NCBI GenBank assembly: GCA_002633005.1
Contig: NMRA01000853.1
Location: 47,933 to 111,932 of the forward strand
Length of the DNA stretch: 64,000 nucleotides
Origin: Phoronis australis
Lineage: Eukaryota > Animalia > Phoronida
Direction of reading: 5' to 3'
Made by a program: the position numbers and the translations under genes. The stretch's first letter is position 1; every line of letters starts with the position of its first letter. Below the pieces are notes generated by a model. The model was not told where the DNA came from. It searched no databases and saw only the letters and a list, made by a program, of their open reading frames with translations. Positions 1,734 through 52,950 of the stretch are shown in pieces.

Positions 1734-1899
1734 GGAAAGAAAGGAATCATTACATTCCGCCACTGCACCTGGAAGAACAACCCCAAGCATCCCACAGGAC
1801 ATATCGATTTGTGGGACGGCAAGAACTGTAGAAACAAGTGTTACTTCAAAGAGTGTAAAGAGTATTGCTTATTCGAGATCCCCAAACCAAAAGCCTTCG
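1734..1899 (+). CDS. Gene 1 exon, type C (His-containing C-terminal third of a Tae4 domain, internal form)
   Basis: tttcag|GGA acceptor, TTCG|gtgagt donor; GKKGIITF...TGHIDLWDG. Confidence 0.9.
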
Positions 1900-4321
1900 G
1901 TGAGTATCTTAAAAGTCAAGTTAACTGCATAATGGCAGAGTGAATATTTATTAGACTCTCATGAACCTGAACAATGCCTTGAACGTTTTGGTGTTACTTA
2001 TTACACTTGTGTGTCTACTGTATTCACAGAACCCAAGTTTAATGACATCTGGAAGAAGTATCCGAATCCGAAGATTAAGAAACCCGCCATGTGGAAAAAA
2101 GCTGGGTTTGATCAGAAGTATCTATCACACTGGGACACCTGTGGACTGAGGTTTAGTTACGCCACCTATAGTTTAGGTAAGTGCCCGTATTGCATTGACA
2201 ACCAGTCAGAGTCTCATCAGGCACTACACACACCCGTTAGATGTTAAATTGGCTGTTAAAGATAGGACATCTGTTGGCTCATTTGTTGACTAACATACTT
2301 TACTGCCGAACGTATACAATGCAGTCGTACCGCCGAGGGCTGTCGTTCTGAATAGCAGTTTCCATGTAAGTGACTGTGTTTACCCTGAACCCGCGTTTGT
2401 GTGAATTGCGTTGAGCGTACCACGATCGTTTGAGACATCTACTAGTTTTTACGGTTTTGCTCCGAGTGAATTTGAATCATGTTATAAACTGTTTCTGATG
2501 ATACGATTGTCAAGTGCGCATGTCTATACGTGCGTTGTTACGTGCTGCATGGAAGAATTGCAATAAACCAGCAAACTTCGATATGTCTGTTTTGAGCGCG
2601 AGACGAGCTTTTTGAGAGACGTGGCAACCGTTTCACTGGCTTTGGTGAAGCTTTGATGAGGTGGGAAAAATTGCCACGCCTTGTTAAAGATGCGCAGGTT
2701 AAGGTAATTGTCAACCTTCGTGAAGCCTTTTTTAGATTCTATAAAACAACTTAACTGTATTTTTAAATGCTTGTCTTAAAGCGTGACTGCTCTTTTTGCG
2801 AAAGTTATCAATTTTAATTTAAACATGTATTTCTAGAAAATCTGACATTTGAAATACAATCGCACTTGTTCTTATTGCCAAATACACAGGGAGGTGTGTC
2901 TCAGTTTTTCATGTATTCAAAAAAAAAACAGTGAAATCTTTGTTGTTGGACGGAAAACGAAATATCGGGGATTTTTTTCCTCGGTCATCGAATCAACCAA
3001 GGCATTCAAGAGAAATCGACGTCCAAACCTTTTAAAGCGGCGAAAATCAAAAGACCTAGAATTGCCTGACGAAGGTTTTCCAGGTATTTGGAATTGATTG
3101 AAGTCGTTCAAAACAACTTGCATATTCATGTAATGCGTTTAAAGAAATATTATAGAAGAAATGAAAACATTCCACGAAAGTTGGAAATTTCCAAACATAT
3201 TTTCAAATTTTAAAGAATGTGTCTATGGAAGAGTGTGACAAATAACAATGGCCAATAATAACCATTAGTGATATTAGTAGTAGTATTAGTAATAGTATTA
3301 GTAATAGTATTAGTAATAGTCCTGTTGGGATATACCGATGATTATTGCATTTTAAGTTTATTTCCATGCAGTTTAGACTGACATGAACTATTTTTAAGAG
3401 GTGTAGATAACCCATAGCATTCAGATATAAGCATGCTCAAGAGAGTTCCCTTTTTTAATACATTTCATTTCAAGAAAAACAGATAATTTTATTATTGAAA
3501 TTACATCTTTAGTTCTACTTTAAAATGAAATACAGGCTTTGGTGAACACTCGGCGATGGGTACCACAATTTATGCTATGAACAGTTAACAGAGCTGATGT
3601 TGACCACTCCGTTCCTAATGACATCATGCCTGTCGTTTCTTGTTTTACTGCAGGCTACACGATTGGCATAACGAAAGCCGATAATTGTAACTGGTCGGGT
3701 TTTAAGAACAAACGGGGTCAGAAATACATCATCAGGGCGGACACTTGGCATTGTTATCTGACGAAGATACTCAAGAAACCACTGTGTGTGAAAAACAGAG
3801 CAAAGTTGCAGGTAATTCTCAAATTTTTTTCGGATTTCATCAAGTGTTGTTTTCTCTGAAGTTATTGATCCTTTTCCTATGTGCATGGTTCTCAGTGTGG
3901 AGTCGAAGACATTTTGTTTACCAAGCTGGATAAAAATATTCAATGCGTGTAGGACTTCGTCTGTGATATATCTGGTTCAGTTTCCCTCTCGGTACCTGTA
4001 CGTTAATTACGTGCTCATTTCGCATACTTACGTTATTGCGCACGTCCAAAATTATTCATAAAATTATGTCTTGTGTTTGTCTTATAGCGCGTTTTCAAAT
4101 TTCTTAGCGAAGCCAATAATGAAATTTCTCGCACAAATGTTATCATAAAGCAACTGTTGTTTCAGGGAAAGAAAGGGATTATAACGTTCCGCCACTGTGC
4201 TTGGAAACAAGACCCCAAGCATCCCACAGGGCATGTCGACGTGTGGAATGGGAAGAAATGCAGAAACAAGTGTTATTTCGACCAGTGCAAGGAGTTCTGC
4301 TTGTTTGAAATTTCGAAATAA
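1734..4321 (+). CDS. dae4: Gene 1: 5'-incomplete Tae4-like (domesticated amidase effector, dae4-like) multi-domain peptidoglycan hydrolase; exons 1734-1899, 2030-2176, 3654-3811, 4166-4321
   Basis: All four exons have canonical AG/GT boundaries with compatible phases (0-1, 1-1, 1-0, 0-stop). They splice to GKKGIITFRHCTWKNNPKHPTGHIDLWDGKNCRNKCYF...EPKFNDIWKKYP...WDTCGLRFSYATYSLGYTIG...GQKYIIRADTWHCYLTKILKKP...GKKGIITFRHCAWKQDPKHPTGHVDVWNGKKCRNKCYFDQCKEFCLFEISK*. Motifs match Tae4 as recalled from the Salmonella enzyme (PSFNEAW, NACPIRMSY, YIYRV..MIDYL....GKP, GKKGII, GHVTLWNG..C...C). Confidence 0.88.
2030..2176 (+). CDS. Gene 1 exon, type A (catalytic Cys, DTCGLRFSY)
   Basis: cacag|AA acceptor, TTAG|gtaagt donor; Cys codon TGT at 2140-2142. 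Confidence 0.9.
3265..3320. repeat. Low-complexity (AGTAATAGTATT-like) microsatellite in a gene 1 intron
   Basis: Tandem agt/aat/att triplets. Confidence 0.8.
3654..3811 (+). CDS. Gene 1 exon, type B (middle third of Tae4 domain)
   Basis: ctgcag|GC acceptor, CAG|gtaatt donor; YTIGITKADNCNWSGFKNKRGQKYIIRADTWHCYLTKILKKPLCVKNRAKLQ. Confidence 0.9.
4166..4321 (+). CDS. Gene 1 terminal exon, type C
   Basis: tttcag|GGA acceptor; GKKGIITFRHCAW...TGHVDVWNG...FEISK TAA; AATAAA at 4485-4490. Confidence 0.9.
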   Translation, partial: GKKGIITFRHCAWKQDPKHPTGHVDVWNGKKCRNKCYFDQCKEFCLFEISK

Positions 4322-4511
4322 CTGTTTCCGTGACTTCACGATCTCACTTGATTATCGTTCATGTAGAATCTGAACATGCTACTTAACTGACCTATAGGCC
4401 ACGTGACAAGTTTGAATATAGTGGCTTTCGCGCTTCCTTCTTACTTGGCAATTTGAGCTGCGTTTGCTTAAACCCTCCATCTGAAATAAACAAAAAAACA
4501 AACAACAAGAN

Positions 4512-5274
4512 GCATTGTTATCTGATGAAGATACTCAAGAAACCACTGTGTGTGAAAAACAGAGCAAAGTTGCAGGTAATTCTCAAAATTTTTTCAGATT
4601 TCATCAAGTGTTGTTTTCTCTGAAGTGATTGATCCTTTTCCTATGTGCATGGTTCTCAGTGTGGAGACAACGACATTTTGTTTACCAAGCTGGATAAAAA
4701 TATTCAATGCGTATAGGACTTCGTCTGTGATATATCTAGTTCAGTTTCCCTCTCGGTACCTGTACGTTAATTACGTGCTCATTTCGCACACTTACGTTAT
4801 TGCGCACGTCCAAAATTATTCATAAAATTATGTCTTGTGTTCGTCTTATAGCGCGTTTTCAAATTTCTTAGCGAAGCCAATTATGAAATTTCTCGCACAA
4901 ATGTTATCATAAAGCAACTGTTGTTTCAGAGAAAGAAAGGGATTATAACGTTCCGCCACTGTGCTTGGAAACAAGACCCCAAGCATCCCACAGGGCATGT
5001 CGACGTGTGGAATGGGAAGAAATGCAGAAACAAGTGTTATTTCGACCAGTGCAAGGAGTTCTGCTTGTTTGAAATTTCGAAATAACTGTTTCCGTGACTT
5101 CACGATCTCACTTGATTATCGTTCATGTAGAATCTGAACATGCTACTTAACTGACCTATAGGCCACGTGACAAGTTTGAATATAGTGGCTTTCGCGCTTC
5201 CTTCTTACTTGGCAATTTGAGCTGCGTTTGCTTAAACCCTCCATCTGAAATAAACAAAAAAACAAACAACAAGA
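4512..5274 (+). repeat. Near-identical direct copy of 3748-4510 (partial exon B plus terminal exon C at 4930-5085); probable haplotype-overlap assembly artefact
   Basis: 763-bp repeat at offset 764, separated by a single N at 4511, starting mid-exon, with only scattered SNPs. Confidence 0.85.
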
Positions 5275-34596: not shown

Positions 34597-36814
34597 CTAA
34601 CTGGACTCGACCTGGCAAGCATTCTTTGTTATGGGCAAAAATCCCGTATGTTGCAGGTTACTCAAACCTAATGGAAGCACCGGTAATCCTGCCCTGATAT
34701 TAGTAACTCTAGGACTTCATTGAAAAGCAAGATTTCGCAAGATTACGTGCGATGTTGCCATGTATTTTGAATGAGAACGCGTAATTTTGGCTAGATTTTT
34801 TGTGAGCTCCTAGCATTACTGAACTCTACCCTGTTGAATGGACATGTTAAAACTCGTCGTGGAGATCACATATGTATCAAAATGGCTCCCAACTCCCAAG
34901 TATATTTGATCGTTGTTTTTCTTTTCTCTTTTACAGGTACCGGTTACTACGAAAAAACAACCCAAGATTAGAAATGCCTTTTTGTAAATAATTATTTAAA
35001 AATCTTGATTATTGGTTGAAAACGTCATCTTAATAAATGGAAAAGAGGGAGCAAAGAATTTTATTGGGCGAGGGTCTTCGAACTTTACTGCCTACGAACA
35101 CTAATTTTCCATGAACCCAATCGAACATCATTTGAACATCTGCGTGCAAAACAGATACGTCAGGTACTGCAAACGTTGAAAGAGGTGTGTGGTTAGTCTT
35201 CATTTCCAGGAAAACAACACAGTGTGAGACATGGGTTCCGCAGAAGCAGCTGTATTCTACATGCCAAGGCCAGTGCGCTTCTCTTTGCCACATGATGTTC
35301 GCACAACAATCTACAGTGATGGGAACAGCACCAAGCTAATTTGATTGATGACTTTGTTCACTACAGCTAAACACGTGAAACAAACATTCACAAACAGATC
35401 TGTACATGTGAATTTGAGGTACAAAGACACGCTGTGTGTATATATCTCGTGTGGTGAAATAACTATTAAACGGACGTTCGACAAATAATGAAATGCGATA
35501 AACAAAAAAAATGGATGGCAATAGCAAATAATACTTAAAAGCATTAATAACAGCACAGCTTTTAGGTGATGTTTCTGTTTCCTAACTCAAGCATGTATTA
35601 CCAGGCCAACTTCCCATGTGTAGCGTAAACTGGTTAAAGCTGATTCCCATACACTAGCTGGTATCCTTGCGAAGCACGGGTTCCAGCTAGTTGGTATTAA
35701 CACTATTACATTCACTTTTAAATAGACTATTTAAAACCTTCTTAGAACAGGTAGAACACCATTATATGCTTCAAAAATTAGTTTTCACATCGAACCCATT
35801 TGGTCTAAACTAACGTAATCGCCACCAGAGCAATACTTGATTAATATTACGCCTTTCATAAACCAAGACATGAAAAAACACTTCTGCCTCCGATCCCCAA
35901 GTTACCAGTAAACCACAAGGTTGATTGAAGTCTTCTTACTCGGAACGATTATTTTCTCATAGAAAGTTGCCATACTTCAAAATACGTCGCGCCAAATAGA
36001 AATTATCAATTAGAGTCAACTTCAACTTAATAAAGTTTTCTCCAAATGAAGCAATGTAAAAAAACGGGTAGAGTGAGTATAATAACCAGTGAAGGATCGA
36101 ACGGGAAACCGAATTCTATAATGGGGTCGACATTGTCGGCCAAAATCACTATTGGTACCACAAAAAATGACTAAATGGCATGTTCATTGTTTACATTGGG
36201 TGAGAATATAGTGATGTAGCCTTATTTTCCCCACCCCCGACTGCCCCGAACTCCCAAGGTTTCACGCTTGCAGTCGTCAGCCAGTTGCTGGCAACCGAGT
36301 CACCTTTATGGGTCTCTGATTTCAGAATCACAGGTGTTACTGAATGGAAGTAACTGGTTTTGAAATCAGGAATCAATCCCGGACCCATAAATCCCTCGAT
36401 TATCCAGTTGTCACTCTTGCTAGTCACTGTCGTACCACGCTGTCATCGTTTCTGATGCCAATTGGTACGTCGTTTTGTTACCGGTAAGGTGCTCGCTCGC
36501 TGTTGCCAATCCATAAGCAGTCGCCCCTGTAAAGTGATTGTCACCCCAGTGTCAGTCATACTTTTCTGCAGTCGCGTTCGCGTTCAACATGTACACGAAG
36601 AACTCTAATGGAACCCAACGCATACGCGATCGTGAACTTGTGACCTCCAGTGAATCACGTGTTCGTGTTTGTGTTGAACGTGTAGCATAAAATCTCTTCT
36701 TACATGTCCCCTGTCACCTGCGCTGCATTCATTTACGATACGGATCGAGGTTGGAAGGTTTTATGAAAACTGCCGATAACTGTTCAGATAATTTAGAGTA
36801 TTCTACTGTCTAAG

Positions 36815-36862
36815 ATGAAGAACGTCGTTGCATTGCTTTTCTTCCTCGTTTTGGAGCTACAG
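36815..36862 (+). CDS. Gene 2 exon 1: signal peptide MKNVVALLFFLVLELQ
   Basis: AAGATGA start context, basic N-terminus plus hydrophobic core, CAG|gtttga phase-0 donor matching the next exon. Confidence 0.65.
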
Positions 36863-39800
36863 GTTTGAAAAGTTAATTCAAAATTAATTATTTGTTGTCA
36901 TATAATCGGTGTTACTTTCAGAAAGCATTTTGGGGATTATTGTTGGACGAGATAGATTTCTTGAAGTTCCTTAGCTTTCACCATAGCTGTAAACAAACAA
37001 AATCTCAGTGTTTTGAGGACTTTTCAAAAAGAAACACCAATTACCACAGTTGTCCTCCAGAGATTCGTTGAAATCAAAGCCGTTGCCTTTACCATAAAGA
37101 GACCGTTAAAAGACCTGCAACTTAACGCGTTGGTTTTGAGGCTCAGCGGTAGCGTGTCCGGTTGTTACTACGGTAGTAGTAGATTCGATTCCATACTGCT
37201 TCTAATTTATATGAAGTTTCTTTTCTAGCAGAGAATCTCCCCTGGAGGCTCACTTCCTTCTTCCTTGTGTACTCAATATAGAAGATATGAAATAGCATCG
37301 TTCGTTTCCCCTACATTTCTTTAATAGTAATAGCAGAAACACGTAAAAACGTTTAGGTATAATGAGATATCTTTTAGATACAATTCACTTATCTAAGTAT
37401 CACCGATAACAAGTTACAGGCAAGCATGTTTAATCTGGCCTTCCAATTTATATATGAATGAGTTTTACTTGTGTGCTACTACCATATTCTATCGAGAATC
37501 TATTTCAGCTAGGAAGGTCCCAACGAGACCAAAACTTTTTTTTGTCTTTACAAGTCCAGAGTTCACTCAGATTTGCATAGGTCCTCCCACTGCCCTGCCA
37601 TACAGCAAATCAATGGGTGAAAATCTTGTGCATCACTCTCGGACTTCCCGCCCTTTTGCGATCGTCTCGTCTCCTGGTAGATGTCACAAGATCTGCTCAA
37701 TAGAATCCCTTCAGATGCCACTCCTAGCCAATACAAGTTGCTGGTGGTACGGTCAGTTGTCTTCCTAACACCGAGATATCCTCCGTGGGTAAGCCTCGTT
37801 ACGGCTTAATAGGCACGACAACTTGTTTCACGTCATCTCCATCCTTATTCTTGAACAGCCGATACAGTATCCCTCGCTTGACCTCCATCAGCCTCTGGTC
37901 TGTCATTCGACTTTTGCTTCTGCTTGACCCCAGAGCTATTTTGAGGATAATCTTCTTCCTAGACTTCCTTGAACTGTCGAAGTTCCATGTCCTGTGTGGA
38001 ATGGGACTTCGGTCTTCTAGACTTTTTCGAACACGTATCAACCCATATGTTAGGAATTTTTTAACATATTTTTGGGTGTTAAAATCAAGTTGTTGTTAAT
38101 TTGATTTCTAAGCACTGATATTTTAAGTAGTATTTACATATACCCGTGAATTAAAATTTTAAAAATGCCTGGTAAATGGATCCAATCCAATACTTTGTGT
38201 TACAGACAGCGGACACCACTCTTCCAGCGGACACCAGGCCAACAACGTCTTCAACGAGCATGCCCACTGCGCAATCGCCGCCCTGTAACGAAACAAAGAA
38301 AATAGCAGGTATGACCAAAAGCTTTTCACAAATGGGTCCTTTAAATCGCGCTGACTGCACGTTTCGGGATACAACCCTTCAGAAATATGGTTGAATACTC
38401 TCGAGGAACAGGGACTAGGTGGGATATCTGCAACTAGGTATCTAGGTAATAGTGAACATTTTTCATCTGTTCACAGGACGTTGTCAGTAGTCGATGTGCG
38501 CTTTAATCCTGTAAATACAATGCTATTTTCCAGTCACCACGGTGGAACACTCAAAATTGTACGATGACACGTGGCTTACCTCAATTTCTAAATGCCAGTT
38601 TACAATCTTTGTAATTGGCCCAATATGTTGCCCTCCCAGCAGAACTATTGGAGAAGGATAATGTCAGTACACTATTTTCTAGATTTAGGTTATAAAAGCT
38701 ACATTTCTTGTCCGATTTTCAAAATTCAAACACCTAACCATGTGCATCCAATTATTACGTTACTAAAAACTATCTGATGGATATTCAAAAACACTATTGT
38801 CGTCCCGAATGTTTATAACTATGTTTGAGATGTTCAAGTTCGCACCTGATTACCCAAGTTAATCTCCAAACGATTATAACATCAGCAGAAGGTGGATGCT
38901 CTCTTTGAAGCTAGCGGCAGGTATGGTTATCCTACCGGTCAAATTGAGGCGAGGGTGTCGATCACGTAGGATTCATTTCATGACAGAGTTACAGTCGACA
39001 TCCAGAATTTGACGAGGTTTTGTCATAGGTCATGCTTATTCCTACACTAAATTTTTGACTAAATTTTTGTCTAAATTTCACCTGCTGTGTACCATTTTTG
39101 AAAATTAGCAGACATGTAAGAGTTATTTCGCAAATTTGAAAACATTTGCTGGGCCTTTGAGGCCATTTTGAACGCTGACAAGTCAGCTGCAATGCAGAGG
39201 GGTAATCTTACCGTGATGTCGGAAATAATTTTCACGGTAGCCTCTACATTTTGAGGGTATAAATTCAAATAACAGGCACTATGAGCCCAGACGTTTCGAA
39301 AAGTAGACAACAGCCAGTCCTAACCTATTCTATTTAGTCTGCAATGCGAGAAGAAATACAGGTGCAACTTCATAATGTACAGATACTTTTGCAGATTTCA
39401 AGTTCAAAGTCGACTTGTGGGCCAAGTACCCAGACCCAAAGACGTTTCCGAAGGCTGATATGTGGAAAAAGGCGGGGTTTGATAAGAATTACGGAGACAC
39501 ATGTGGGATGAGATTTAGCTACACCCTTTACCAACTGGGTGAGTAGAAACTCATGGTCGAGTGATGCATTTATAATCACGTTCTGAACTCGAAATTGGTC
39601 AATTAACCAAGTCAATAATATAGAAATATAGATCGATCACGAGCGTAATATCAGGTGTATAGAGCAAGGGAGAGTAATGTTGCCGGTTGCCTGACACTGA
39701 TTTTTGATTGGTAAGTCATTTCAAGCTTTGATGAGCTGCCATCCACTGCTCGGTAAGTTTAATTACGAGCTCAGGATTATCATGCCAATATTTGTATGAT

Positions 39801-42800
39801 GACACTTGACTCATTCCATTTCTTACTGATGCCTGCTATTTAGTGAGCCTTGGGTCTTGATAGGCAACTGACCTATCGTCAGGATTGTGAGTAGCGGCTT
39901 AACTGAACAAGCACAACGCAATATTCTTGACACACCTTCGTCTGCGTGGAACTTGCGATAGGTCATTTACGATGGTTCATAAACCAGTAGGCAGCAGTTG
40001 GAAATGGATGCGAATCAAGTTTCATAGTACAATTATTCCAATGATAATCCTGAACTCGTAAACAAAGCTAACGAGCGCAGAGGCCGACAGCACACCGAAG
40101 CTTGAAATAACATACCGATCTAGCATCAACATGGCTAGATCTAAGTGTAATTTTGCACTCCTTACGAAGTCAATGGCGGTTAACTTCCTTCACGTATCTT
40201 CCCAGCGCCCTCATGTGACCGGAACAAAAACTTTTATCAGTGACAAAATGGCAACGCATCGGCAGAAATTCTTGGTTCGTTTTTTCTTTCGAAATTCCAA
40301 TCACAAAAAGAAAGGAAAGTTTTTGTTCGGTAATCAATGATATCGTTTGCGTGCAAGGGTCAGCGCCGAAAAATAACCGAATCGGGCGTTTTTTAATCCA
40401 CTTAATGGTCAAAAGTCCTCACGCTTTGCTTAATTTGTTCATGTCATTGCGTGTAAAAGTTAACAACGGATAAACGAAAATCTTCTGTCACTAGAAAATT
40501 TGTTAAGTTTTTACTATCCTATTTTAACTTGAGATAGCTATTGACTTTGAACTTTGTCTTCGTTAGTGACAAGATGGCGACGAATTGCTAGAAGCTCTGG
40601 CAGATTTTTGTCAACCACAGAATATTGGTTACAGTAACTTTTTAGTAAAAAGTCCATTGGCAATTTGAACGTGACTAAATGTGACTTCTCTTCGCTCAAG
40701 CCACTGTTTGGGCGTGCTGAACAACAGATCCACCCTCCCAGTCTTCCGCCACTTGAAAAACAATATCGCCATTGGCACTGTGTAGATGTCTACTGTTCAA
40801 ATTCACTTTGAAATAGACGTTGGGTTCGGTACTGTAGTGTATTACTAATAATTACTAAGAAAAGAGTATATTTCTACTTAACTAAAAAACACGTGATCCC
40901 CCGGAAGCCACCGCTACCAGAGACTTCTCGTGGTGATCTCACAAACTAGTGAGCAGGGTATGCCACAGGTACAGCGCGTATTTAGGCCCGTAGCCAGGGG
41001 GATTCGGGGGGCTCGATCGAACCCCCTCCAGGGGGTAGGGTCGAGCCCAAGCATATCCGTTACGCATAGGATATAGATGAGCAACAATATCAACAAAACT
41101 GTTGCAGTTATTACTGGTACCACTTAATACACTAATTAATCAAGCTGTTAATAATTTCAAAATTGGTTCGGAATCCAAGTGGCTAATGTATTTCGGTACC
41201 ATTTAAGAGGTTCATGCAGACGACGATTAGCGGACTCTTTGCGCGTGGAGTCTGTAACATAGGGTAAGACGGGCCTTAGAACTAAATGTCTATACCTACA
41301 TGTATATAGCAACGAGATGTCTCAAAAATTGTGTGGAAACAGCTTAAAAGTTGTCAACTATCAAAATAACAGAAGATATTAGGTTTGTTAACTGATTTTT
41401 CTTTATAGCTGCCAGCATATAGTGATGTGCAGGATTTTTTAATTTTCGAATTGAAAGTTTTCGTCGAATATGTTGTTCATCTAGTGCATGCTTTGGTTGT
41501 GGATTGGTGGATCTTTTAAATGCAATACACATAACTTTAATAGGAAGTCCTCTGTCGTTGCTCAAAAAGCAGAATTTCACTTCATATGTACCGTGTTTTT
41601 GTGCACTGACAAAGTCCCGCCGACGAACATGCTCACATCATTCGGTAAAAGTAGGATTAGACTTAATAAAAATTTTTGTTCAACGAAATTTTCGTCAATG
41701 GTGCACAACCTCGCAGACTTCATACGAACAACAAACTTGATGGAAGAGATTTCCACAATTACATATTACTGCTCCTAAGGTTTACTATAGTAAAACCATG
41801 TTCACAAGTCCCCCCCATTCCGTGCTATGCGCATCTACAATCGTGGTTTGCGCAAATGCTTACAACCGGACAAAATGTTGCCCCCCCCTTGCGATATTCT
41901 AGATCTGCCACTGGTATCTGCTAATGAGGTGGCACTGACATTCATAAACTACTGTACTTGTGTATAGTAACCATTTAAAGGGTGTGCAAAAATTAACAGT
42001 TCTTAAATTATTGATTGCATTGTTTGCAAATGAGCTCAGTTCCAATCATTCACAATGATATCGCGATTCTTCAATCTAAAACGATTCATTTTCAAAACAG
42101 GGACAACATCGTGGACACGGAGGTATTTTATTTGAGGCGACTTACGGGCAGCTTTAAATTTGGAAAGACAGGACGTGACTCTCTCACTTGCTTTAGACTT
42201 GCAGGGGTAGGGTAGCCTGCAACATTTAGTTCCGATCCGGCCATGGCGCTTGTTTCCGTTATTGTGGGTGAGGTTGAAGCGCTGCGGATAAACTTTTCAG
42301 TCGCGATGTGGAATGGTGTAATCTTGACATGGATTTGTTGAATGTGTCGTGGTTCATAAGTCGTCAATAGTCCTACTTCACATTCTTTTCAAAATGAAAG
42401 TACGCATTGATTTTTCCGTATTCATAAGAAACGTTTTTGGACCCCACATTCGCGTAGGCAAGAAACCCAAACAGTTAAAGTTTATTAATATCAGGGCGTT
42501 ATTCTCGGAATCATAATCATTACTAGGTACGCCACTGCGTCTAAACCAGCTGTTCCCATCTCCCGAATCGATATGAGCAACTTTAGTAACCTGACAAAAA
42601 TTTCTTTACGTCATTCTCGGACTACATGAGTCCTTGCGAGTACGTTGGGTTCGAAAGTTCAGCAGAGGGTAACGCTATGTAATCCAGAAAGAGAACTTTG
42701 TGAACCACAATACATCCGAACTTGGGTTCTGTTTTTTGCAAATAAGCGTCATATGCCATCCTCACTTTTGGATTGGCCTACCAATTCCATCTTATCTCAG

Positions 42801-45800
42801 GAAAATGGAGCCGCCAAGAGTCATCACCGTGTATACGTTTTTCCCTTCTGCCGGGTTTAGCTGCCTAAGTGTGCTACAAAAAAATGGCGGACGTTTGCGA
42901 AATATGATCAAAAGGTCCACCATTTAAGAAATTCGAACCACCCACAGAGCAGTGCTGGCTACGGGCCGGGAATAAAATTATAGTTCGGTCAAGTTGCACG
43001 CCATGTTCAAAACGCGCTTTATCGGCACGACCAAGCATTGGCTTACTGCAATACTCCAAGAAAATGTCGTTAAAACCGTCAACGAAACAAATAGTATGTT
43101 TTCGACTGAAGTCATCAATTGGATCATTCTTTTAAAAAAATTCAGTATCATCGAAACGAAAATGCATCCCTCACTACAATTTTTGAAGAATATCAAATTT
43201 GAGTGAAGCAGTATAACGTTGTTGCAACTTTTGTGGTGAATTCTGGGTCACTTGGATCAGTCCTTTTTGGACGACAGCGGCACGAGTTACGAATTTCAGC
43301 AATATTTTACATTAAAGTTTAATGAGACATGAGTTTGACTACTGTTTAGTGTGAGTCAACATTTTTCACTACAATTTAATCACTCAGATGTTTCTAATTG
43401 ACTGATAAAAGCCCACAATTCCGTTACCGGCAGCATGACGACTCCCTCCTTCTCTCCCTTCCTGCCTCTCTCCTTCCGTGTTTCTGTCAGAAAGGTAGAT
43501 TTAGTTCTTTTGAACATCCACGCTGACATTTTCATTGTTCTAAAGCTTGCGGGATTTAGTTAAACGCTATAACAGTTACCACAACCAGTCAATAACTTCT
43601 GCGACGTATTTTCATTATCATATGGTAAAAGCCTTTGAACTTCAATTTTGAGAACAAGTTGTTATTATTTCTTTTTATTCAGACAGTGGCGGATCTACGG
43701 GGGGGGGTTCAGGGGGTTTAAACCCCCCCCTCGGGCCAGGACCCAAAAATTAAAAAAACAAAAAACAAAACAAAAACGTCTCCAGCAAAACAAAAACGCC
43801 GGCACCGCCAGCGTGTGTAAACCCCAAGTAAACCAACCTGGAAAAAAATGAGGGGGGGTTCACTCTGAAAATATATTTTTTGCATTGTGAATTGCTGTTA
43901 TGAAAATCAACGCGTTTCGAGTCTTCGTGGCTCATCGACAAAACCCCGGAGATCAATTGTGCGCGCGCTTCCGACGACACTTCTGAAGTAGCCAAGCATT
44001 TTAGATGGATCCACCGCTGAAAGAGCAGCTCTATAGCTGATTTCTTTAGATAACTAGCTTCTTTACTCTAAGATATGTTTTGATTTGATTAGGGAAATAC
44101 TGTGGTGCCCCAACCCTGATATTCAGGCGAATTGACGTGCAACGTTTTTACCTCATCTGTCATGCCGTGTCATCGTATTACACCCCACACGTTTGAAACT
44201 CGAATTTGAGTGGTGTACAGTAAAGTTGTCTTGCGCAATATCATACGGTGTACATGTACATGTAATACTTTTGAAAAAAACTTGTTTTCCGAAGAATTGC
44301 TATTGTGGCGGGCGCCGTGGTCTGGTCGCGAGTCTGTTTGAAGATGCACTCTAACAAGTTTTGTCTATACAAGGAATGACCAAGGGGGCACTCACATTGA
44401 CAAAGTGACCGCATTCGCGAACAGTTTACAGTACCAGAAATTGCGGGGAGCCTGTATTTTCACAACAAAGTCTTGCGGGACTCGTGCGATGTTCAATGGG
44501 CCTCCTAAGGAGCCCTAGTGCCGACCTCAACACCTACCGTCTTTCTACCTGCAATAAGCACCACTGCCGTTTTCTATACTGGGAATTTCCGCAGAAAGGC
44601 CCAACCGACGAAACGCCCATGCTCATGGGCATTTATTTGATGTTTGTACTTCGGGTTTCAAGCGTTCAGACACTGGGACGTTTATTTCGAAAATTGCAAG
44701 AGATGCAAATGGGTCCTGGGATACATCGTCAAGGTTTGAAGTAGTCCATGATGAACGGATCAAATTTAGTTGCGCATGCTGTAAGTCTTTTGAATGGACT
44801 TGGTAACCTCAGGGGGCTTAGTGCCAACTGAGCTGCGAAACGAGATGCTGACAATGTAGAGGCGTACAAGCTCATTGACACAGCAGTTGACGAAGTGCAA
44901 GCGTTGGGAACAAACGTCGAAGATGTCTGGGTAGAATGGTTCCAAGAGCAGCAAACCATTGGATCCGATGTACAGATTCCTCGGCAGTCTAGACAACAGA
45001 AAGATAGGACCAACGTTCCTGGAGAAACACCCAGGTAATAAGTTATAATTATACACAGTTTGTAATAATGTCGGTTTTTTATGCTTGTGTACAATGAAAA
45101 CGAAATAGAAATTATTTTTGGACATGCCAAATTTACCCAGTACAGCAGAGGGTCTACGAGAGCACAGAAACTGATTCTGGTTTGTATTTCCACTTGAGTC
45201 TATCTGCTTCATATCCAAAATCTTATTTCACGTAGTGCGTAGTTAAATCTGTACTCCATACTTGTTTCTTCCAGTGAGTACTACAGAACGGTGCGAAAAC
45301 CCTTCCTAGACAACCTCTCGCAGCAGTTACCACCAGATGTATGAACTACACGTATGAGCATCCACTGGGGATTAAAAAGTGTCTAGAGAGAAGTTTTCAA
45401 TTCAAAATTTTTCGCAAAGTACGCTTTAGGTCTCGCGACGGACCAGGCCAGCTTGATTTGTGTAGATATCGAGTTTCAGTGTACTTCTGGTCCCTCGGCG
45501 AACTAGACTTGTGATGTTTTTTACCAAAGTGTGCTTTGTAAAACTATTTATCTCAGCCAGTACTGTTTGGTCCCGCGACAGATCGACTATTTTATAGGGA
45601 TAACAACCAGAGGTGTACTTTTGGTCTCGTGACGGACCAGGCCAGAGTTTTTGTGTACTCTCAGTGTACATCTGGTCCCTCTGCGAACTGCTCCTGTGTA
45701 TCTTTTCATCACGGTGTAGGCCTACAGAGTGTCATGGTTTCGTGAAACTGTTTTCAGATGATTTGTTTCCTGATACATTTGACGTTTTTCAATTGTTGTC

Positions 45801-48800
45801 AACGTGATTCAGCTTAATAAAGTGATACTTAATTGTTTTTGTCGCTTTTAGTAATAAACTATGAGCTGAGAGCACCATCGTTCGCCAGTTTTTCTCGTAA
45901 CGAGACAGAACACACGTTTATTTCCGGACTAACAGTACAGGTCTTCGTTCTTAAACAGCTTGAGGCTGTTGCGATCATCTTATATTCAAGTTTTTACGCC
46001 CCGTCGGTGCTCCTTATGCTCTTGAATATTTGGTAATTTGGTAGTTGTCTAAGCCCCTGTGCACAAATCACACTTTTTCGTATGCTAAAAAGGTGCGTGT
46101 AAGCAGATGTTCCAACAAAAAATTTTGCTGGTGGTGTGACTCATACTCAGATGTGCACAAATACGGTTTCACGAAACTTATGAGCCAAGTTCATGTGAAG
46201 AAATCGAGAAGGGCTTTTAATTATCTTAAGAAAAATTCCTGTTAAGTGCCAGAAACGTACCAGGATGCATGGAAATTTCACTGTTTGGCTAGAAAAATAA
46301 AAAGTTATCTTAAACGGGAGGGAGGTTTACCCCCCTCCCGACCTCCCCCCGCTCGGCGCTACGCGCCTCGGATTCGACCTTTGCGGGAATCCTACTGAAA
46401 ACGTAGATCCGCCACTGTTCAGAAATATTTTTGTTACCCTTTTCGGATCCATAACGGTTTCCCCAGTTTCACTGACAATTGGCCCTTGATGATTTCATTT
46501 CTAAATGTTCACAGGTATGCTAACCTTTTCAATTCCTATTGTTGGCCTGTCTTTTTACTCCCATACCCACATTTCTAAGGCTCAAAATTCCTGGGCCGCA
46601 ATGTTAGCTGTCTCCCCGGCCTGGTGCTAACACCAGTTTTAATTAATTTCCTAATACTGTTAATAATAATTAAACATATCCGTATGGGTAGGTTCGAATG
46701 GAAGCCTTCTTAGTTTAGACGATATTTTACAGGCTACAAGATATGCATCACGAAAGCTGATAATTGTAACTGGTCAGGCTTTAAGAACAACCAAGGTAAA
46801 AAATACATAATCAGGGCTGACACTTGGCATTGTTACCTGATCAAGATCTTCAAAAAGCCACTCTGTGTAAAGAAAAAAGAAAAATTAGCGGTAAGTTATG
46901 CAGATTTAACAGCTACAAACATGGCAAGTCATAGAAGCTGATACGCGCACTTTGATCACTCAAATTGCCCGTTGTGAGAATGCCTCAGTGTCTTTGGAAT
47001 TCAAGTCCAGGGCACTTGACAATGGCACAACTTAACAGTTAAAAAAATAAAATAGTATTCCAGATCTTCCTGCTTGCCGACCGCTTGATGACGACTAGCT
47101 GTATTTCTCTCGGTTTAGCTGACTTAAAAGAACGTAAACTGATTTCGCCTTTCTGTTCTCATAATATAGATCGCATAATATTCCTTACCGTGATAAGTCA
47201 TATTTCCATTACCAACTTAAACCACAGGCAATGCGTACATGTATGGTGGGCCGTTGAGGGGAAAGTGTCGCCGTAAAACTACGCTCGAAATTACGAGCGT
47301 AAATTAAATTGCAGGAGTGTCGCCGTACAATTACGCTCGTAAATTATATGGGGAAAGTTTCGTCGTAAAATTACGCTCGTAAAGTACCTTATGAACGTTC
47401 CAAATTTAAACCAATCAGTAATGACCTAACATACACGACTGTTGCTGGGCAGCTCGTTCTTGCACAATGGTTGACAGGGCAGCAGCGATTTGATCCGCCA
47501 TGATTCAACGCTCGTATCATAGACATGGAATAAATATTTCCATGAGCGCGCGCGATCTTGGATTGTAAAACCCAACGTCATTGGCTAAGAGTTTAAACTA
47601 AATTACGCTCGTAATTTTACGGCGTAATTAACGGCGTAAATAACGGCGTAATGTACACAATTACGCTCGTATTTTTCCGGCGACACTTTCCCCCCAGCGG
47701 CCCATCATATAGATGTGCTATTTTCGTTTGCGCAATTTTGGAGCTGGTCATCACAATGAATTCAGAAGCACTTTCTTGAGTAGCTGATGGTTCGATGTTC
47801 TTGTTGGTTACGGAAATCAAACTCTATCACTGCAAGGAATTCTTAGTAGCCGACTTCATAGAATTTAACATCCTAATTCGATTTTCGGTTTTCAACCATC
47901 TAAACAGGAATTTACACGGGTGATGAAGATTTATTTAATGCGGCAGCAAAATCAACTATTTTGTTATTTCACTCTACAGTATAGAAATGTTAAAGAAATT
48001 ATATCAAAATTATGTCTCACTCTTTTGACTGCTACGAGTTTTCGATGGACTCAGTTGGCAATATTTTTCAGGGAAAGAAAGGAATCATTACGTTCCGCCA
48101 TTGTTCCTGGAAGAATAACCCTAAGCATCCCACGGGGCATATCGACTTGTGGGACGGCAAGAAATGCAGAAACAAGTGTTACTTCAAAATGTGTAAAGAA
48201 TATTGCTTATTTGAGATCTCCAAACAAAAGGACTTCAGTGAGTATCTTTAAAAACAAGTTAACTGCACAATGGCAGAAAGATTACAAGTCTGAATATTTG
48301 TTGGCCACTCATGAACCTGAATTAACAATGCCTACAAAGTTTTGATGATGCCTATTTGATTCTTGCAATTTACTGTATTCACAGAACCCAAGTTTTATGA
48401 ATTCTGGAAGAAGTATCCGAATTTGAATATAACGAGGCCTGAAATGTGGAAAAAAGCAGGGTTTGATGAGAAGCACACACAATGGGACACCTGTGGTCTG
48501 AGGTTCAGTTACGCCGTCCACAGTTTAGGTAAGTGCCTCTACTGCATCGACAACCAGTTGGAGTTATATCACGTGGAGCACATACCCGTTAAATATACAA
48601 CTGGCTTTAGTGAATTCATTGATGAGGCGAGTAAAATTGTTAGTCTCTCCAAAGATGCGCTGGTTAAAGTAACGGAAACCTTCGTGAAGCCCTTTAGATT
48701 TCATAAAACAGCCCAACCGTATTTTCTGAATCCTTGATACCTTCAAGAAGAACCGCCTTTTCTGTAAAATTGTCATTTTTCATTTGAACATGTATTTCTT

Positions 48801-50392
48801 AACAAAATCTATACTTGGGTTGCTCCATGTTTGATTTTCTATGTATTTGGCATTTGGTCTTATTGTCAGCACCCGAAACTTTTTCTCAGTTTTCTCTGTT
48901 GAGCTGAGTATTGGCTATGGTTTCTTGTCATATTTTGATGTAAGTTTCCATACAGTTAGCTGTCTGGTTAGCAAATGATCATTATTCTTCACGTGATTCG
49001 ATGCAATTCAAACTGACCTAAACAACTTTTGAAGAAGTGTAGAAAACCATGCTCTTTTTAGCCTGGTATTGAAGCAAATGCAAATCCCCACAGCCTTCCC
49101 GTTTTGTGACATTCACGGATAGTTAGAAGTTTTGAAAATCAAATGGTTTTGTTATTGGAATTGAATTTTTTGTTCATCCATTTTAAAAGAAAATACAGGA
49201 ATAGTGAACATTCAGCGATGTTTATCACATTTTATGTTGTGAACAGTTCAAAGCGCTGATATTTACAACTCGTTCCCAGTGAAATTACTCCTGTCGTTTC
49301 TTATCTTACTGCAGGCTACACGATTGGCATCACGAAAGCCGATAATTGTGGCTGGTCGGGTGTTAAGAACAAACACGGTCAGAAATATATCATCAGGAAG
49401 GACACCTGGCATTGTTATCTGACGAAGATCTTTAAGAAACCACTGTGTGTGAAAAACAGAGCAAAGTTGCTGGTAGGTCTTATATACATCAATAACATCT
49501 TCTGTCTTCAGCAGTTGTCATTTTCTCTGAAGTAATTGACTTTTTTATGATAATTATGTGTATGCGTGTCAGTGTGGAGTTTTAACACCAGAAGTCATTG
49601 CGTGCTATTGCGACATCGGTTGTTTTGTTTAACCAAACCGTAATTACAATGTTACTGAAAGTATGCATACCTCACACTGCTGGTCGCTAAATGTTTTCCA
49701 ACGACTTATTTGACATGTTTTCAGGGAAAGAAAGGAATCATTACTTTCCGATACTGTTCCTGGAAAATTAACCCTCAGAGACTTACGGGACATATCGACT
49801 TGTGGGACGGCAAGAAATGTAGAAACAAGTGTTACTTCAAAAAGTGTAAAGAACATTGCTTTTTTGAGATCTCCAAAACAAATAAATTCGGTGAGTAAAT
49901 TAAAGGTCAAGTTAACTGCACAAATGGCAGAAAGGTTACAAGTCTGAATATTCATTAGCCACACAGGAACCTGAACAATGCCTTCAAATTTTATATGATA
50001 TCTATTACTCTTGTGGTTCTTTTGTTTTTCCAGAACCCTGGCTTAATGAAGTCTGGAAGAGGTATCCAAATCCAAATAATAGGAAGCCCGCAATGTGGGA
50101 AAAAGCAGGTTTTGATCAGAAGTACCTGTCATACTGGGATACCAGTGGTCTGATGTTTAGTTACGCCATCTATCGTGTAGGTAAGTGCATCTAATGTATT
50201 TCCAACCAGTTAGAGTTATATCACGCGGTACGCGCATTTGTTAAATGTTAAACTGTCTGAACGGTAGGACATCTGTTGGCTCGTTTGTTGACTTACCTAC
50301 TGCCCTGCTGCACCTGTACAATGTAGGCGTAGCGAGGGTTGCCGTTCTGAGCAACACTTTGCATGTCAGTGACCTTTGAATGACTGTGTGTG

Positions 50393-50440
<48 letters not shown>

Positions 50441-52277
50441 TGTGTGTGTGTGTACCCTGAACCCGCGTTTGTGTGAATTGCGTTGAGCGTCCCACGATCG
50501 TTTGAGACATCATCAAGTTTTTACTGTTTTGCTCCGACTGGATTTGAATCATGTTATAAACAGTTTCTGATGATACGATTGTCAAGTGCGCATGTCAATA
50601 GACGTGCGTTGTAAGATGTTATTGAGAAAATCACAATAAACCAGTAAACCTTGATGTGTCTGGTTCGTGTGCGAGACGTGGCAACCGTTTCACTGGCTTT
50701 GTTGAAGCCATTGGCGAGGCGGAAAAAACTGCCACGCCTTCTTGAAGATGCGCAGGTAAAGGTAATTGTCAACCTTCGTGAAGCCTTTTTATTTTAGATT
50801 CCATAAAACAACTTAACTGTATTTTCTGAATCTTTGTGACTGTCCTTTTTGCCGCGCGGAACTTATCATTTTTACATTGAACCTGTATTTCCAGAAAGAA
50901 ACTCTGACATTTGAATTACAATGCACTTGGCCTTATTGTCAAATACGCAAGGAACTGCGTCTCAGTTTTTCATGTATTTTCAAACAGAAGAGACGTCTCC
51001 GTTGTTAGACGGAAAACGAAATATGGGGTGGGGGTTCTTCAAAAGGCCTAAAATTCGAAAGTTTTCCAGGTATTTGAAATTGATTGAAGTCGTTCAAAAC
51101 AACTCGCATATTCGTGTAACGCGTTTAAAGAAACGTTATTCGGATGTGTAGTGATGAGGTGTCATGGCTGCAGATGACGCAATTTGGACCCGGAAATAAG
51201 AATGAACATGCCGTCACACTGGGTACAAAGCGTCATGCTAAAGAAAATTTTCCTCGAAAGTTGGCAAATACCTAACATATTTTTAGGTTTTAAAGAAGTT
51301 GTCTATGAAAGAGTGTGATTTTATGACCAAGGATAATAAAGAGGCGGTAGAAAAACCCATAACATTCAGATAAATGTACACTCAAGGGAGTTCCCGTTTT
51401 TTAATACATTTCATTTCACGAAAAACTGATGATTTTATAATTGAAATTACATCGTTAGTTCTATTTTAAAATCAAATACAGGAGTCAGTGAGCACTTAGC
51501 GATGGGAATCATATTTTTATTGTAACCACTTCAGAGCACTGATGCTAACCACTCTGTTCCCAATGAAATCATACTCGTCGTTTCTTATCTTCTACAGGCT
51601 ACACGATTGGCATAACGAAAGCTGATGATTGTAATTGGATGGGTCTTAAGAACAAACGGGGTCAGAAATACGTCATAAGGCCGGCCGCTTGGCAATGTTA
51701 CCTGACGAAGACCTTCAAGAAACCACTGTGTGTGAAAAACAGAGCAAAGTTGGAGGTAATTCTCAAATAACGTCTTTTGTCTTCATCAGGGTGGTGCTGT
51801 TTTCTGTGAAGTGATTGATCTTTTACCGATAACAATGTGTATGGTTCTCAGTGTGGAGACGATGACATTTTGTTTGCCAAGCTAAATAACAATATCAAAT
51901 GTGTGTATGCCTTTATCTGTGATATACCCTGTTTAGTTTTCCTCTGGGTGTTGTACGTTCATCCTCCACTCATTTGGCTCACTAACGTTATTTCGCATTT
52001 CCAAAGATAATCAGAAAGTTTTATCTTGTTTTTCGTCTTATAGCGCGTTTTCAAATTTCTTTGTGAAGCCAACTATGAAATTTTTCGCACAAATATTATT
52101 ATAAAGTAACTGCTGTTTCAGGGAAAGAGAGGGATCATAACGTTCCGCCATTGTGATTGGGACCAAGACCCCAATCATCTCCCAGGCCATGTCGACCTGT
52201 GGAACGGCAAGAAATGCAGGAACGGGTGTTTTTTCTACAAGTGCAAAGAGTTCTGCTTGTTTGAAACTTCGAAATAA
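36815..52277 (+). CDS. dae4: Gene 2: secreted three-domain Tae4-like (dae4-like) peptidoglycan amidase/endopeptidase, 515 aa; exons 36815-36862, 38206-38308, 39395-39538, 46733-46890, 48072-48237, 48385-48528, 49315-49472, 49725-49890, 50034-50180, 51598-51755, 52122-52277
   Basis: All 10 introns are GT-AG with matching phases; the exons sum to 1548 nt with no internal stop. Architecture: signal peptide, T/S/P linker, then 3x(A-B-C) Tae4 domains with DTCGMRFSY / DTCGLRFSY / DTSGLMFSY and GHIDLWDG / GHIDLWDG / GHVDLWNG. The first two exons are less certain than the domain exons. Confidence 0.87.
37580..38040 (-). mobile_element. Gypsy LTR-retrotransposon integrase-region fragment in intron 1 of gene 2
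   Basis: EVKRGILYRLF...KQVVVP, RSCDI, FSPIDLLYGRAVGGPM remnants. Confidence 0.6.
38206..38308 (+). CDS. Gene 2 exon 2: Thr/Ser/Pro-rich linker with single Cys
   Basis: ttacag|ACA...GCAG|gtatga; TADTTLPADTRPTTSSTSMPTAQSPPCNETKKIA; phase 0-1. Confidence 0.7.
39395..39538 (+). CDS. Gene 2 exon A1 (catalytic Cys TGT 39502-39504)
   Basis: ttgcag|AT...CTGG|gtgagt; FKFKVDLWAKYPDPKTFPKADMWKKAGFDKNYGDTCGMRFSYTLYQL. Confidence 0.9.
43684..46417 (+). mobile_element. hAT-family DNA transposon (15-bp TIRs, 6-bp TSD TTCAGA) containing a decayed transposase, in the gene 2 A1-B1 intron
   Basis: CAGTGGCGGATCTAC ... GTAGATCCGCCACTG, with TTCAGA on both sides; internal remnants LS..LQ...D.VEA, RQ..R.NVPGETP|SEYYR....PFLDNL. 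Confidence 0.8.
46733..46890 (+). CDS. Gene 2 exon B1
   Basis: ttacag|GC...GCG|gtaagt; YKICITKADNCNWSGFKNNQGKKYIIRADTWHCYLIKIFKKPLCVKKKEKLA. Confidence 0.9.
47242..47709. mobile_element. MITE with ~32-bp TIRs and internal TTACGCTCGTAA/TTACGAGCGTAA repeats
   Basis: TATGGTGGGCCGTTGAGGGGAAAGTGTCGCCG ... CGGCGACACTTTCCCCCCAGCGGCCCATCATA; absent from the homologous gene 1 intron (~1430). Confidence 0.8.
48072..48237 (+). CDS. Gene 2 exon C1
   Basis: tttcag|GGA...TTCA|gtgagt; GKKGIITFRHCSWKNNPKHPTGHIDLWDGKKCRNKCYFKMCKEYCLFEISKQKDF. Confidence 0.9.
48385..48528 (+). CDS. Gene 2 exon A2 (catalytic Cys TGT 48492-48494)
   Basis: cacag|AA...TTAG|gtaagt; PKFYEFWKKYPNLNITRPEMWKKAGFDEKHTQWDTCGLRFSYAVHSL. 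Confidence 0.9.
49315..49472 (+). CDS. Gene 2 exon B2
   Basis: ctgcag|GC...CTG|gtaggt; YTIGITKADNCGWSGVKNKHGQKYIIRKDTWHCYLTKIFKKPLCVKNRAKLL. Confidence 0.9.
49725..49890 (+). CDS. Gene 2 exon C2
   Basis: tttcag|GGA...TTCG|gtgagt; GKKGIITFRYCSWKINPQRLTGHIDLWDGKKCRNKCYFKKCKEHCFFEISKTNKF. Confidence 0.9.
50034..50180 (+). CDS. Gene 2 exon A3 (catalytic Cys replaced by Ser, AGT 50144-50146)
   Basis: ttccag|AA...GTAG|gtaagt; PWLNEVWKRYPNPNNRKPAMWEKAGFDQKYLSYWDTSGLMFSYAIYRV. Confidence 0.9.
50385..50453. repeat. (TG)n/(GTGC)n microsatellite
   Basis: Direct reading; the homologous gene 1 site (~2375) has only TGTGT. Confidence 0.95.
51598..51755 (+). CDS. Gene 2 exon B3
   Basis: ctacag|GC...GAG|gtaatt; YTIGITKADDCNWMGLKNKRGQKYVIRPAAWQCYLTKTFKKPLCVKNRAKLE. 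Confidence 0.9.
52122..52277 (+). CDS. Gene 2 terminal exon C3
   Basis: tttcag|GGA; GKRGIITFRHCDWDQDPNHLPGHVDLWNGKKCRNGCFFYKCKEFCLFETSK TAA. Confidence 0.9.
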   Translation, partial: GKRGIITFRHCDWDQDPNHLPGHVDLWNGKKCRNGCFFYKCKEFCLFETSK

Positions 52278-52950
52278 CTGTTTGTCCGTGACTTCACCAC
52301 CTCACTTGGCTGTTGTCCACGTAGAGGCAGAATATGTCAGTGTGGTTCACGTTCGAGTTATCTGTAATATAGGCTACTTGAGCAGATTAAATGTTAGAAC
52401 ACCTTGTTTTGGGGGTTGTAACAAAATGAACATGCAAATTGTGGCGTTGGGGCTTCTTTCTTATTTGGCAAGTTGAGCAGTGTTTGTATAGTGCTTCTAT
52501 CTCATGTAAACAAAAGACAAAACAAAAGGAGTGCACTGAACCCATAATTAGCAGGGTCACCTGTTGATTATATACCTGTATAGCTCTTTGGATTGTGTCC
52601 AAGTCTATTGTAATTTTAAGGAGAAATGGTTATTGTTTCCGGTTATATAGGAGAAAAGAGTCAGCAAGGGCGGACCACGGGCGTTGATAATTCCTAGCAA
52701 AAATGTTGGAACTTTATTTAGGTTTAATTGTGCATGATAACTCCTACGTGAACTGTTTTTCGCATGGACTACCAGAATTCTTTGCGAGTTTCTTTTTATG
52801 GTATCCAGGTTCTTTCTGTTCTGTGGTTGCGCTTATAAAACCGTTCAAAAGTGAAGCGTTTTATTGCATTTAGCTATTGGAGAATAAATACATTTACTGA
52901 AAGCGTGTTAGCTTAATATACTGTCGTCATATGATTCAAAGTTCGTAACA

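Follow-up and report, generated by a model that had tools for sequence, protein, structure and literature searches.

A probable phoronid dae4 gene predicted to encode a secreted protein with three tandem Tae4 domains

The window analysed here is a 64,000-nucleotide stretch of Phoronis australis DNA (contig NMRA01000853.1, positions 47,933 to 111,932), which carries at 36815-52277, on the plus strand, a gene with three tandem Tae4 domains. We think it probable that this is an intron-containing animal dae4 gene whose transcript is spliced to encode a 515-residue, likely secreted, peptidoglycan-cutting antibacterial enzyme. The dae genes are often cited to show how animal immunity has put bacterial weapons to new use. 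The triple gene is a variant of domesticated amidase effector 4 (Dae4) and not a new system, enzyme class or mechanism.

A motif scan of all six frames located Tae4-like motifs at 39.4-52.3 kb on the plus strand, with a second patch at 1.7-5.1 kb. The original prediction, made from the letters of the sequence, had proposed 11 GT-AG exons joining in frame to 515 residues, and rebuilding these exons by coordinate reproduced it: the spliced sequence is 1548 nt long and reads through 515 codons to a single stop at its end, with none inside. The exons are as follows.

36815..36862, plus strand: exon 1, 16 codons, with the ATG and a hydrophobic N-terminus predicted to be a signal peptide (hydropathy reaches 3.5 in 9-residue windows)
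38206..38308, plus strand: exon 2, linker rich in T/S/P, with one Cys and one N-glycosylation sequon
39395..39538, plus strand: exon 3 (A1), nucleophile helix of repeat 1, Cys87 codon at 39502
46733..46890, plus strand: exon 4 (B1), middle of repeat 1
48072..48237, plus strand: exon 5 (C1), His174, Asp176 and CxxxC; Pfam Tae4 29.9 bits, PDB Tae4 E 0.003
48385..48528, plus strand: exon 6 (A2), Cys243 codon at 48492
49315..49472, plus strand: exon 7 (B2), RNA depth of its bin zero in 3/3 raw-read runs
49725..49890, plus strand: exon 8 (C2), His330 and Asp332; Pfam Tae4 29.6 bits
50034..50180, plus strand: exon 9 (A3), Ser400 (AGT at 50144) at the nucleophile position and Met403 for the conserved Arg, predicted inactive
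51598..51755, plus strand: exon 10 (B3), placed by the coordinate splice model
52122..52277, plus strand: exon 11 (C3), His487, Asp489 and TAA; Pfam Tae4 25.6 bits, below the cut-off of 27

All ten introns have GT...AG borders and all ten acceptors read CAG. The donor consensus was matched at 7 or more of 9 positions by 8/10 model donors, compared to 37/1000 GT sites across the gene span. There is no N letter inside 36815-52277, and polyA-signal-like hexamers lie 3' of exon 11 at about 52386, 52883 and 53019. The product begins with the hydrophobic N-terminus, continues into the linker and then runs through the three domains. A T/S/P linker had been predicted and is present, but it is short, with these residues making up 17 of 27.

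Each repeat is built from three exons: A carries the nucleophile helix, B the middle part and C the His-Asp strands. Their lengths in the three repeats are 144/144/147 nt for A, 158/158/158 for B and 166/166/156 for C, and their phases are 1-1, 1-0 and 0-1, respectively, so that the joints fall in phases 1, 0 and 1. With these phases, any run of three repeat exons can drop out and leave the reading frame intact. Exons C1 and C2 stay open into phase-1 GTGAGT donors and C3 closes with TAA. We considered and rejected the possibility that the three domains are separate genes: introns 5 and 8 measure only 147 and 143 nt, the translations have no leader, and there is no room for a gene start.

The three domains had been assigned to Tae4 from their motifs, and the profile searches agree with that assignment. 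With exons scanned alone, Pfam Tae4 (PF14113, cut-off 27 bits) matched 3/3 C exons, two above the cut-off and C3 below it, and also both C exons scanned from a partial paralog described below. It matched 0/8 A or B exons alone, among them 0/3 A and 0/3 B exons of the main gene. A profile of 108 prokaryotic or metagenomic Tae4 domains, which holds no window or Littorina sequence and whose members were collected via window-derived profiles, found domains at residues 57-200, 208-356 and 367-513 with 82.9, 80.8 and 59.9 bits, respectively; the best of 500 shuffles reached 5.5 bits. Exon 5 matched four Tae4 chains in PDB (E ~0.003). A mixed profile, A4, matched seven Tae4-family sequences, but it holds homologues and is hence not independent. 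In an Atlas look-up with exon 5, Tae4-labelled clusters ranked first, which is weak evidence as the recognition value was low, and a word-index search with exon 5 alone gave no matches. The motif series named in the original prediction was mostly borne out, except that P.F...W is strict only in repeat 2 and that repeat 3 reads KYVIR and GKRGII.

Repeats 1 and 2 carry two predicted active sites, with intact triads C87/H174/D176 and C243/H330/D332. This His-x-Asp type of triad is known from the Tae4 proteins of Serratia (SmTae4) and Agrobacterium (AtTae4) (PMC6277958). The CxxxC pair after the catalytic His occurs in 3/3 repeats, and in Tae4 this pair is described as required for toxicity (PMC3695027). 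On the other hand, repeat 3 is probably not an active amidase, as judged from the changes Cys400 to Ser and Arg403 to Met; H487 and D489 are retained. The S400 and M403 codons are each one base away from those of repeat 2 and the paralog. Among the aligned relatives, Cys occupies the nucleophile column in 36/36 non-animal and 11/12 other animal rows. The motif DT(C/S)G had been seen earlier, but the C/S change was not remarked on as the loss of the repeat 3 nucleophile, and the paralog at 1734-4321 likewise went without remark.

The window domains contain 8-10 cysteines each and are strongly basic, with net charges of +22, +23 and +14 and +22 for the paralog, compared to -9 to +15 for 12 other animal domains and -14 to +11 for 36 non-animal ones. 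A stand-in structure model of a single-domain Littorina relative (P0027) had a predicted local distance difference test (pLDDT) score of 88.8 and was matched to Tae4 structures by Foldseek at E 9.5e-11. A single-sequence AlphaFold model of the amphioxus multi-domain protein P0217 (pLDDT 40.2) was too poor to read domain packing.

A profile search of 1.84 billion representative sequences returned 1343 hits at E 0.001, and domain architectures were counted in the 150 of these that were listed. Three Tae4 stretches were found in 1/150 (P0068) and two in 1/150 (P0203); the latter was rejected as a two-domain protein, having a single Tae4 domain by Pfam. The P0068 cluster includes Branchiostoma floridae XP_035684889.1 (P0214; LOC118421628), a predicted gene model of 657 aa. 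Ten proteins were picked for high score or many Cys, and eight of them come from named animals (four Branchiostoma, two Ptychodera, one Exaiptasia and one Nematostella); a further ten that were looked up included no named eukaryote. Two Tae4 stretches were found in 0/20 long homologues of the word-index search, Littorina saxatilis XP_070201879.1 among them, and there were no two-domain Tae4 open reading frames (ORFs) (0/75 ORFs, in 73/75 prokaryotic or metagenomic loci). Among 213 fetched proteins there was no close relative of the window gene, the best whole-domain identity being 38%, to an animal Dae4. In the prokaryotic loci, C-exon matches spanning most of the exon reached at most 46% identity.

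To place the repeats, trees were computed from 16 animal domains (the four window rows and 12 others) together with 36 domains picked from 194 others by closeness in BLAST and thinned for redundancy. In the best tree the 16 animal rows, including the Nematostella protein nvDae4, fall together with one unnamed SH3b-bearing protein on one branch (92/87), and a smaller tree gave 94/87 for the grouping with animal Dae4. One further Cys column is occupied in 4/4 window, 9/12 other animal and 0/36 non-animal rows. Kinship of the window repeats with animal Dae4, as first proposed, has moderate support. The window repeats and the paralog domain (four rows) form a clade of their own (100/99), and the repeats of the amphioxus triple are placed among single-domain amphioxus genes (93/93). 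The best tree therefore favours separate copying or homogenisation of the present repeats in the window lineage and in amphioxus. Approximately unbiased (AU) tests rejected none of the groupings tried (animal-only clade, p 0.41; window plus amphioxus triple, p 0.16; window plus all Branchiostoma, p 0.38), and the two triples may have had an old multi-domain ancestor.

Three unnamed Tae4 proteins with SH3b or peptidoglycan-binding domains (P0089, P0136 and P0184) stand beside or within the animal branch and are candidates for donor-like or protist lineages. In Ptychodera flava XP_070570416.1 (P0101), a Dae4-like domain follows DUF6973 in one fusion.

The characterised protein nearest in kind is nvDae4 of Nematostella vectensis (LOC5507694; 10.1101/2021.05.13.443009; PMC8713801). 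Like the window protein, it is an animal Tae4-family protein that has its catalytic Cys in the same column, as well as His-x-Asp; it is 32-38% identical to the window repeats and shares their branch in the best tree, and its Cys63 aligns with C87/C243/S400. It differs in being a single domain with net charge +9 and 5 Cys, whereas the window gene has three domains with 8-10 Cys and +14 to +23 each. A Cys-less copy also exists in Nematostella, but as a separate gene (P0218), while the nucleophile-less copy of the window is repeat 3 within one chain.

The B. floridae triple resembles the window gene in combining three Tae4 domains within a single chain (three stretches by Pfam), preceded by a hydrophobic leader and a T/P-rich linker, at ~33-35% identity to the window repeats. 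In contrast to the window gene, it has an extra N-terminal lectin-like domain (Lectin_C, E 0.023, below the cut-off), near-identical acidic repeats (net -9, -4), acidic linkers of ~25 residues, and Cys in all three domains. Littorina XP_070201879.1 has a signal peptide, which is also predicted for the window protein, and shares a T/S/P linker ending in Cys plus an N-glycosylation sequon, and a Cys-rich Tae4 domain; it differs in having one domain and a linker of ~250 residues (30-35% identity). Bacterial Tae4 proteins (PDB 4HFK, 4J30, 4BI3 and 6IJF) have the family, the Cys-His-Asp triad and the CxxxC after His in common with the window protein. Theirs is a papain-like NlpC/P60 domain, and the window protein would be expected to have the same fold. 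Bacterial Tae4 is injected through a type VI system, has Tai4 as its partner and is encoded without introns; the window gene, on the other hand, has ten introns, a hydrophobic leader and transposon-rich surroundings.

The origin of the third domain can be read from the introns. Introns 5/8, 6/9 and 7/10 are homologous (73-83% over local stretches), and exon C1 is 86% identical to C2, compared to 76% and 70% with C3. Because these intron pairs are homologous and C1 is closest to C2, the duplicated unit is C-A-B together with the introns inside it, and a phase-0 intron lies at either border. Tandem duplication of this three-exon block gave rise to the third domain.

The second patch of motifs corresponds to two further features.

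1734..4321, plus strand: partial paralog, exons C 1734-1899, A 2030-2176, B 3654-3811 and C-stop 4166-4321, in frame
4512..5274, plus strand: duplicate, a 98.3% copy of 3748-4510 (end of B plus C-stop) right after a single N at 4511

The paralog is oriented like the main gene, at a distance of ~32 kb, and its introns are ~72-86% identical to those of the main gene. Its 5' part is lost in an N gap at 98-993, and its last domain retains Cys and Arg, with an intact active site. The sequence in front of its first C exon aligns with intron 4 and not with intron 7, and the stretch from the N gap to that C exon contains no B exon, so the paralog is probably a two-domain gene. The copy at 4512-5274 is likely an assembly duplicate or an uncollapsed haplotype. 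Intron 4 of the main gene contains an element that resembles a miniature inverted-repeat transposable element (47174-47872), with inverted ends and internal short tandem repeats; the corresponding intron of the paralog aligns on both of its flanks.

The ratio of nonsynonymous to synonymous divergence (dN/dS) was 0.06-0.40 across 6/6 repeat pairs. Repeats 1 and 2 share 69% of their amino acids (dN/dS 0.21) and repeats 2 and 3 share 66% (0.32). The peak of 0.40 is that of repeat 3 against the last domain of the paralog, which would fit relaxed constraint. An excess of third-position changes was significant (p<0.05) in 5/9 exon pairs.

As RNA evidence we used reads of three raw runs from the same species (X1, X2 and X3), 18-19% of each, placed on 36300-52800 at 90% likeness. 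Depth refers to the first-mate-minus strand, which is sense provided that the libraries were stranded in the usual way; the animals sequenced may lack this haplotype. In X1/X2/X3, the exon bins had depths of 0.58/0.07/0.36 (exon 1), 0/0/0.6 (exon 2), 0.88/0.37/0.05 (exon 3), 4.59/2.05/2.07 (exon 5), 0/0.03/0.24 (exon 6), 0/0/0 (exon 7), 1.5/0.99/0.17 (exon 8), 0/0/0.45 (exon 9), 2.42/1.73/1.98 (exon 10) and 1.4/0.63/0.41 (exon 11); the exon 4 bins are mixed with repeats. There is thus thin, mostly one-strand depth on the bins of exons 1, 3, 5, 8, 10 and 11, and the dae4 family appears to be transcribed. Most RNA reads were absorbed by repeats in intron 3. A repeat element at 43400-46350 in that intron has RNA reads on both strands with depth up to 144; a 76-85% copy lies at 59382-61822, and Pfam matched 0/3 of its ORFs tested.

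Several observations weigh against a three-domain product as the main output of the gene, or against parts of the case for it. RNA support for the junctions had been suggested as a check on the splice model, and apart from the thin depth it did not come: no exon-exon joint was found among the 15 of 47 joints listed, the joint tables being filled by intron-3 repeats. The exon-7 bin is zero in 3/3 runs and the exon-6 and exon-9 bins are near zero in 2/3, with 1.7-2.4 on the exon-10 bin. Reads placed at 90% likeness may belong to other alleles or to paralogs. Without splicing at the C1 or C2 donor, translation would meet a stop within 4 or 2 codons, respectively, so one- and two-domain products are possible. 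The third-position excess was not significant in 4/9 exon pairs, including all three close pairs involving repeat 3 or B2-B3. Finally, the animal branch of the tree reaches only 92/87, is not starred and takes in the unnamed SH3b-bearing protein.

One possibility for these observations is that the gene is a real dae4 that normally yields a two-domain (or one-domain) product, with the middle block haplotype-specific or skipped in frame and the triple a copy-number variant. This is the strongest of the alternatives, though we regard it as unlikely. The absence of depth on exon 7 in all three runs, while exons 5, 8, 10 and 11 are covered, speaks for it, as do the in-frame removability of any three consecutive repeat exons, the stops close behind the C1 and C2 donors, and the two-domain look of the adjacent paralog. 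Since no sense reads fall on exon 7, a two-domain allele or isoform may be dominant. However, RNA depth is very low, from 18-19% of each run and from animals perhaps without this haplotype, and the depth pattern could arise from paralog reads, from allelic divergence or from a two-domain form. The middle block has diverged, with no stop or frameshift and with its splice sites intact, which suggests that it has been translated over the long term.

The reading that we prefer, a spliced three-domain Dae4, implies the following course. Introns gained after transfer from bacteria would have split the Tae4 domain into three exons, and the exon phases would then have allowed in-frame duplication or skipping of three-exon blocks, giving two- and three-domain paralogs. 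The bacteria-to-animal direction of transfer is stated in two Dae papers (10.1101/2021.05.13.443009 and 10.1101/2020.04.10.036376), and a Tae4 transfer involving Giardia muris has also been reported. The protein would be exported via its predicted signal peptide and form disulfides; as a polycation it could bind anionic bacterial surfaces, where repeats 1 and 2 would cleave peptidoglycan stem peptides like Tae4 and nvDae4. Repeat 3, which retains fold residues and His-Asp, may serve as a non-cutting peptidoglycan-binding module or alternatively be a decaying copy. In experiments, nvDae4 proved to be a secreted protein that cuts the peptidoglycan of E. coli and S. epidermidis and kills B. subtilis, with killing abolished in C63A, and its induction by cyclic GMP-AMP (cGAMP) is NF-kB-dependent (10.1101/2021.05.13.443009). 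A second paper reports no killing of E. coli by tick Dae2 and describes Dae enzymes as unable to cross the outer membrane (10.1101/2020.04.10.036376). Because of this statement Gram-positive bacteria are the default targets, and killing would chiefly concern them.

The tick findings also lend themselves to a different role, in which the enzyme cuts peptidoglycan to digest ingested bacteria or to trim immunostimulatory muropeptides and does not take part in immune killing. This is improbable, as nvDae4, the tested Dae4, is induced by an immune signal and kills, and the very high positive charge of the window domains suits the binding of intact bacterial surfaces.

It could also be speculated that the triple was created by faulty assembly, or that it is a pseudogene in decay. 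The window does have assembly flaws, namely the N gap and the duplicate after the single N, repeat 3 has lost two active-site residues, and there are repeats inside intron 3. However, this is very improbable: the repeats are too unlike for mis-joined reads (64-86% DNA identity in exons, 73-83% in introns), which led us to reject mis-assembly, and the gene is free of N, open in frame over 11 exons and has dN/dS below 1 in 6/6 pairs. Bacterial contamination or a very recent transfer, which the mostly prokaryotic Tae4 family might bring to mind, can be dismissed, contamination being contradicted by the ten spliceosomal introns, and retrotransposon-bearing surroundings, animal-like GC and the identity ceilings of 38% and 46% given above speaking against both.

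The original prediction held that a three-domain form may be undescribed. We found no published description of a multi-domain Dae4 for either the window or the amphioxus triple, a search that did not cover Chou et al. 2015 and its supplements, which might describe the amphioxus dae4 architecture. The three-Tae4 architecture is, however, not unique to the window gene, because a predicted B. floridae triple is in RefSeq. This amphioxus parallel appears to have been overlooked. In the two papers cited above, the tested Dae cases, nvDae4 and tick Dae2, are treated as single enzymes. The locus documents steps that follow domestication: an exon block was duplicated, neighbouring paralogs came to differ in their number of domains, the charge drifted strongly towards cationic and one active site was lost. 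It also offers a test of whether concatenation and charge broaden the killing range or increase potency.

A bolder proposal, which we put forward as speculation and hold to be doubtful, is that intron gain after domestication made the toxin domain a three-exon cassette, and that animals joined such cassettes in tandem on at least two separate occasions, in the window lineage and in amphioxus. With a charge of about +60, two cutters and a pseudo-enzyme binder, the window protein might then grip and breach the Gram-negative envelope that stops single-domain Dae, with domain number varying by paralog, allele and splice form.

The rest of the window contains remains of retrotransposons, namely RVT_1 and RT-RNase H fragments at 19602-19979 (minus strand) and 56465-56866 (plus strand). 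An ORF at 34059-34388 (minus strand) has a single C2H2 finger-like stretch below the Pfam cut-off. A chain of co-linear matches (69-79%) between 22949-27447 and 58816-63696 suggests an old segmental duplication or a shared repeat.

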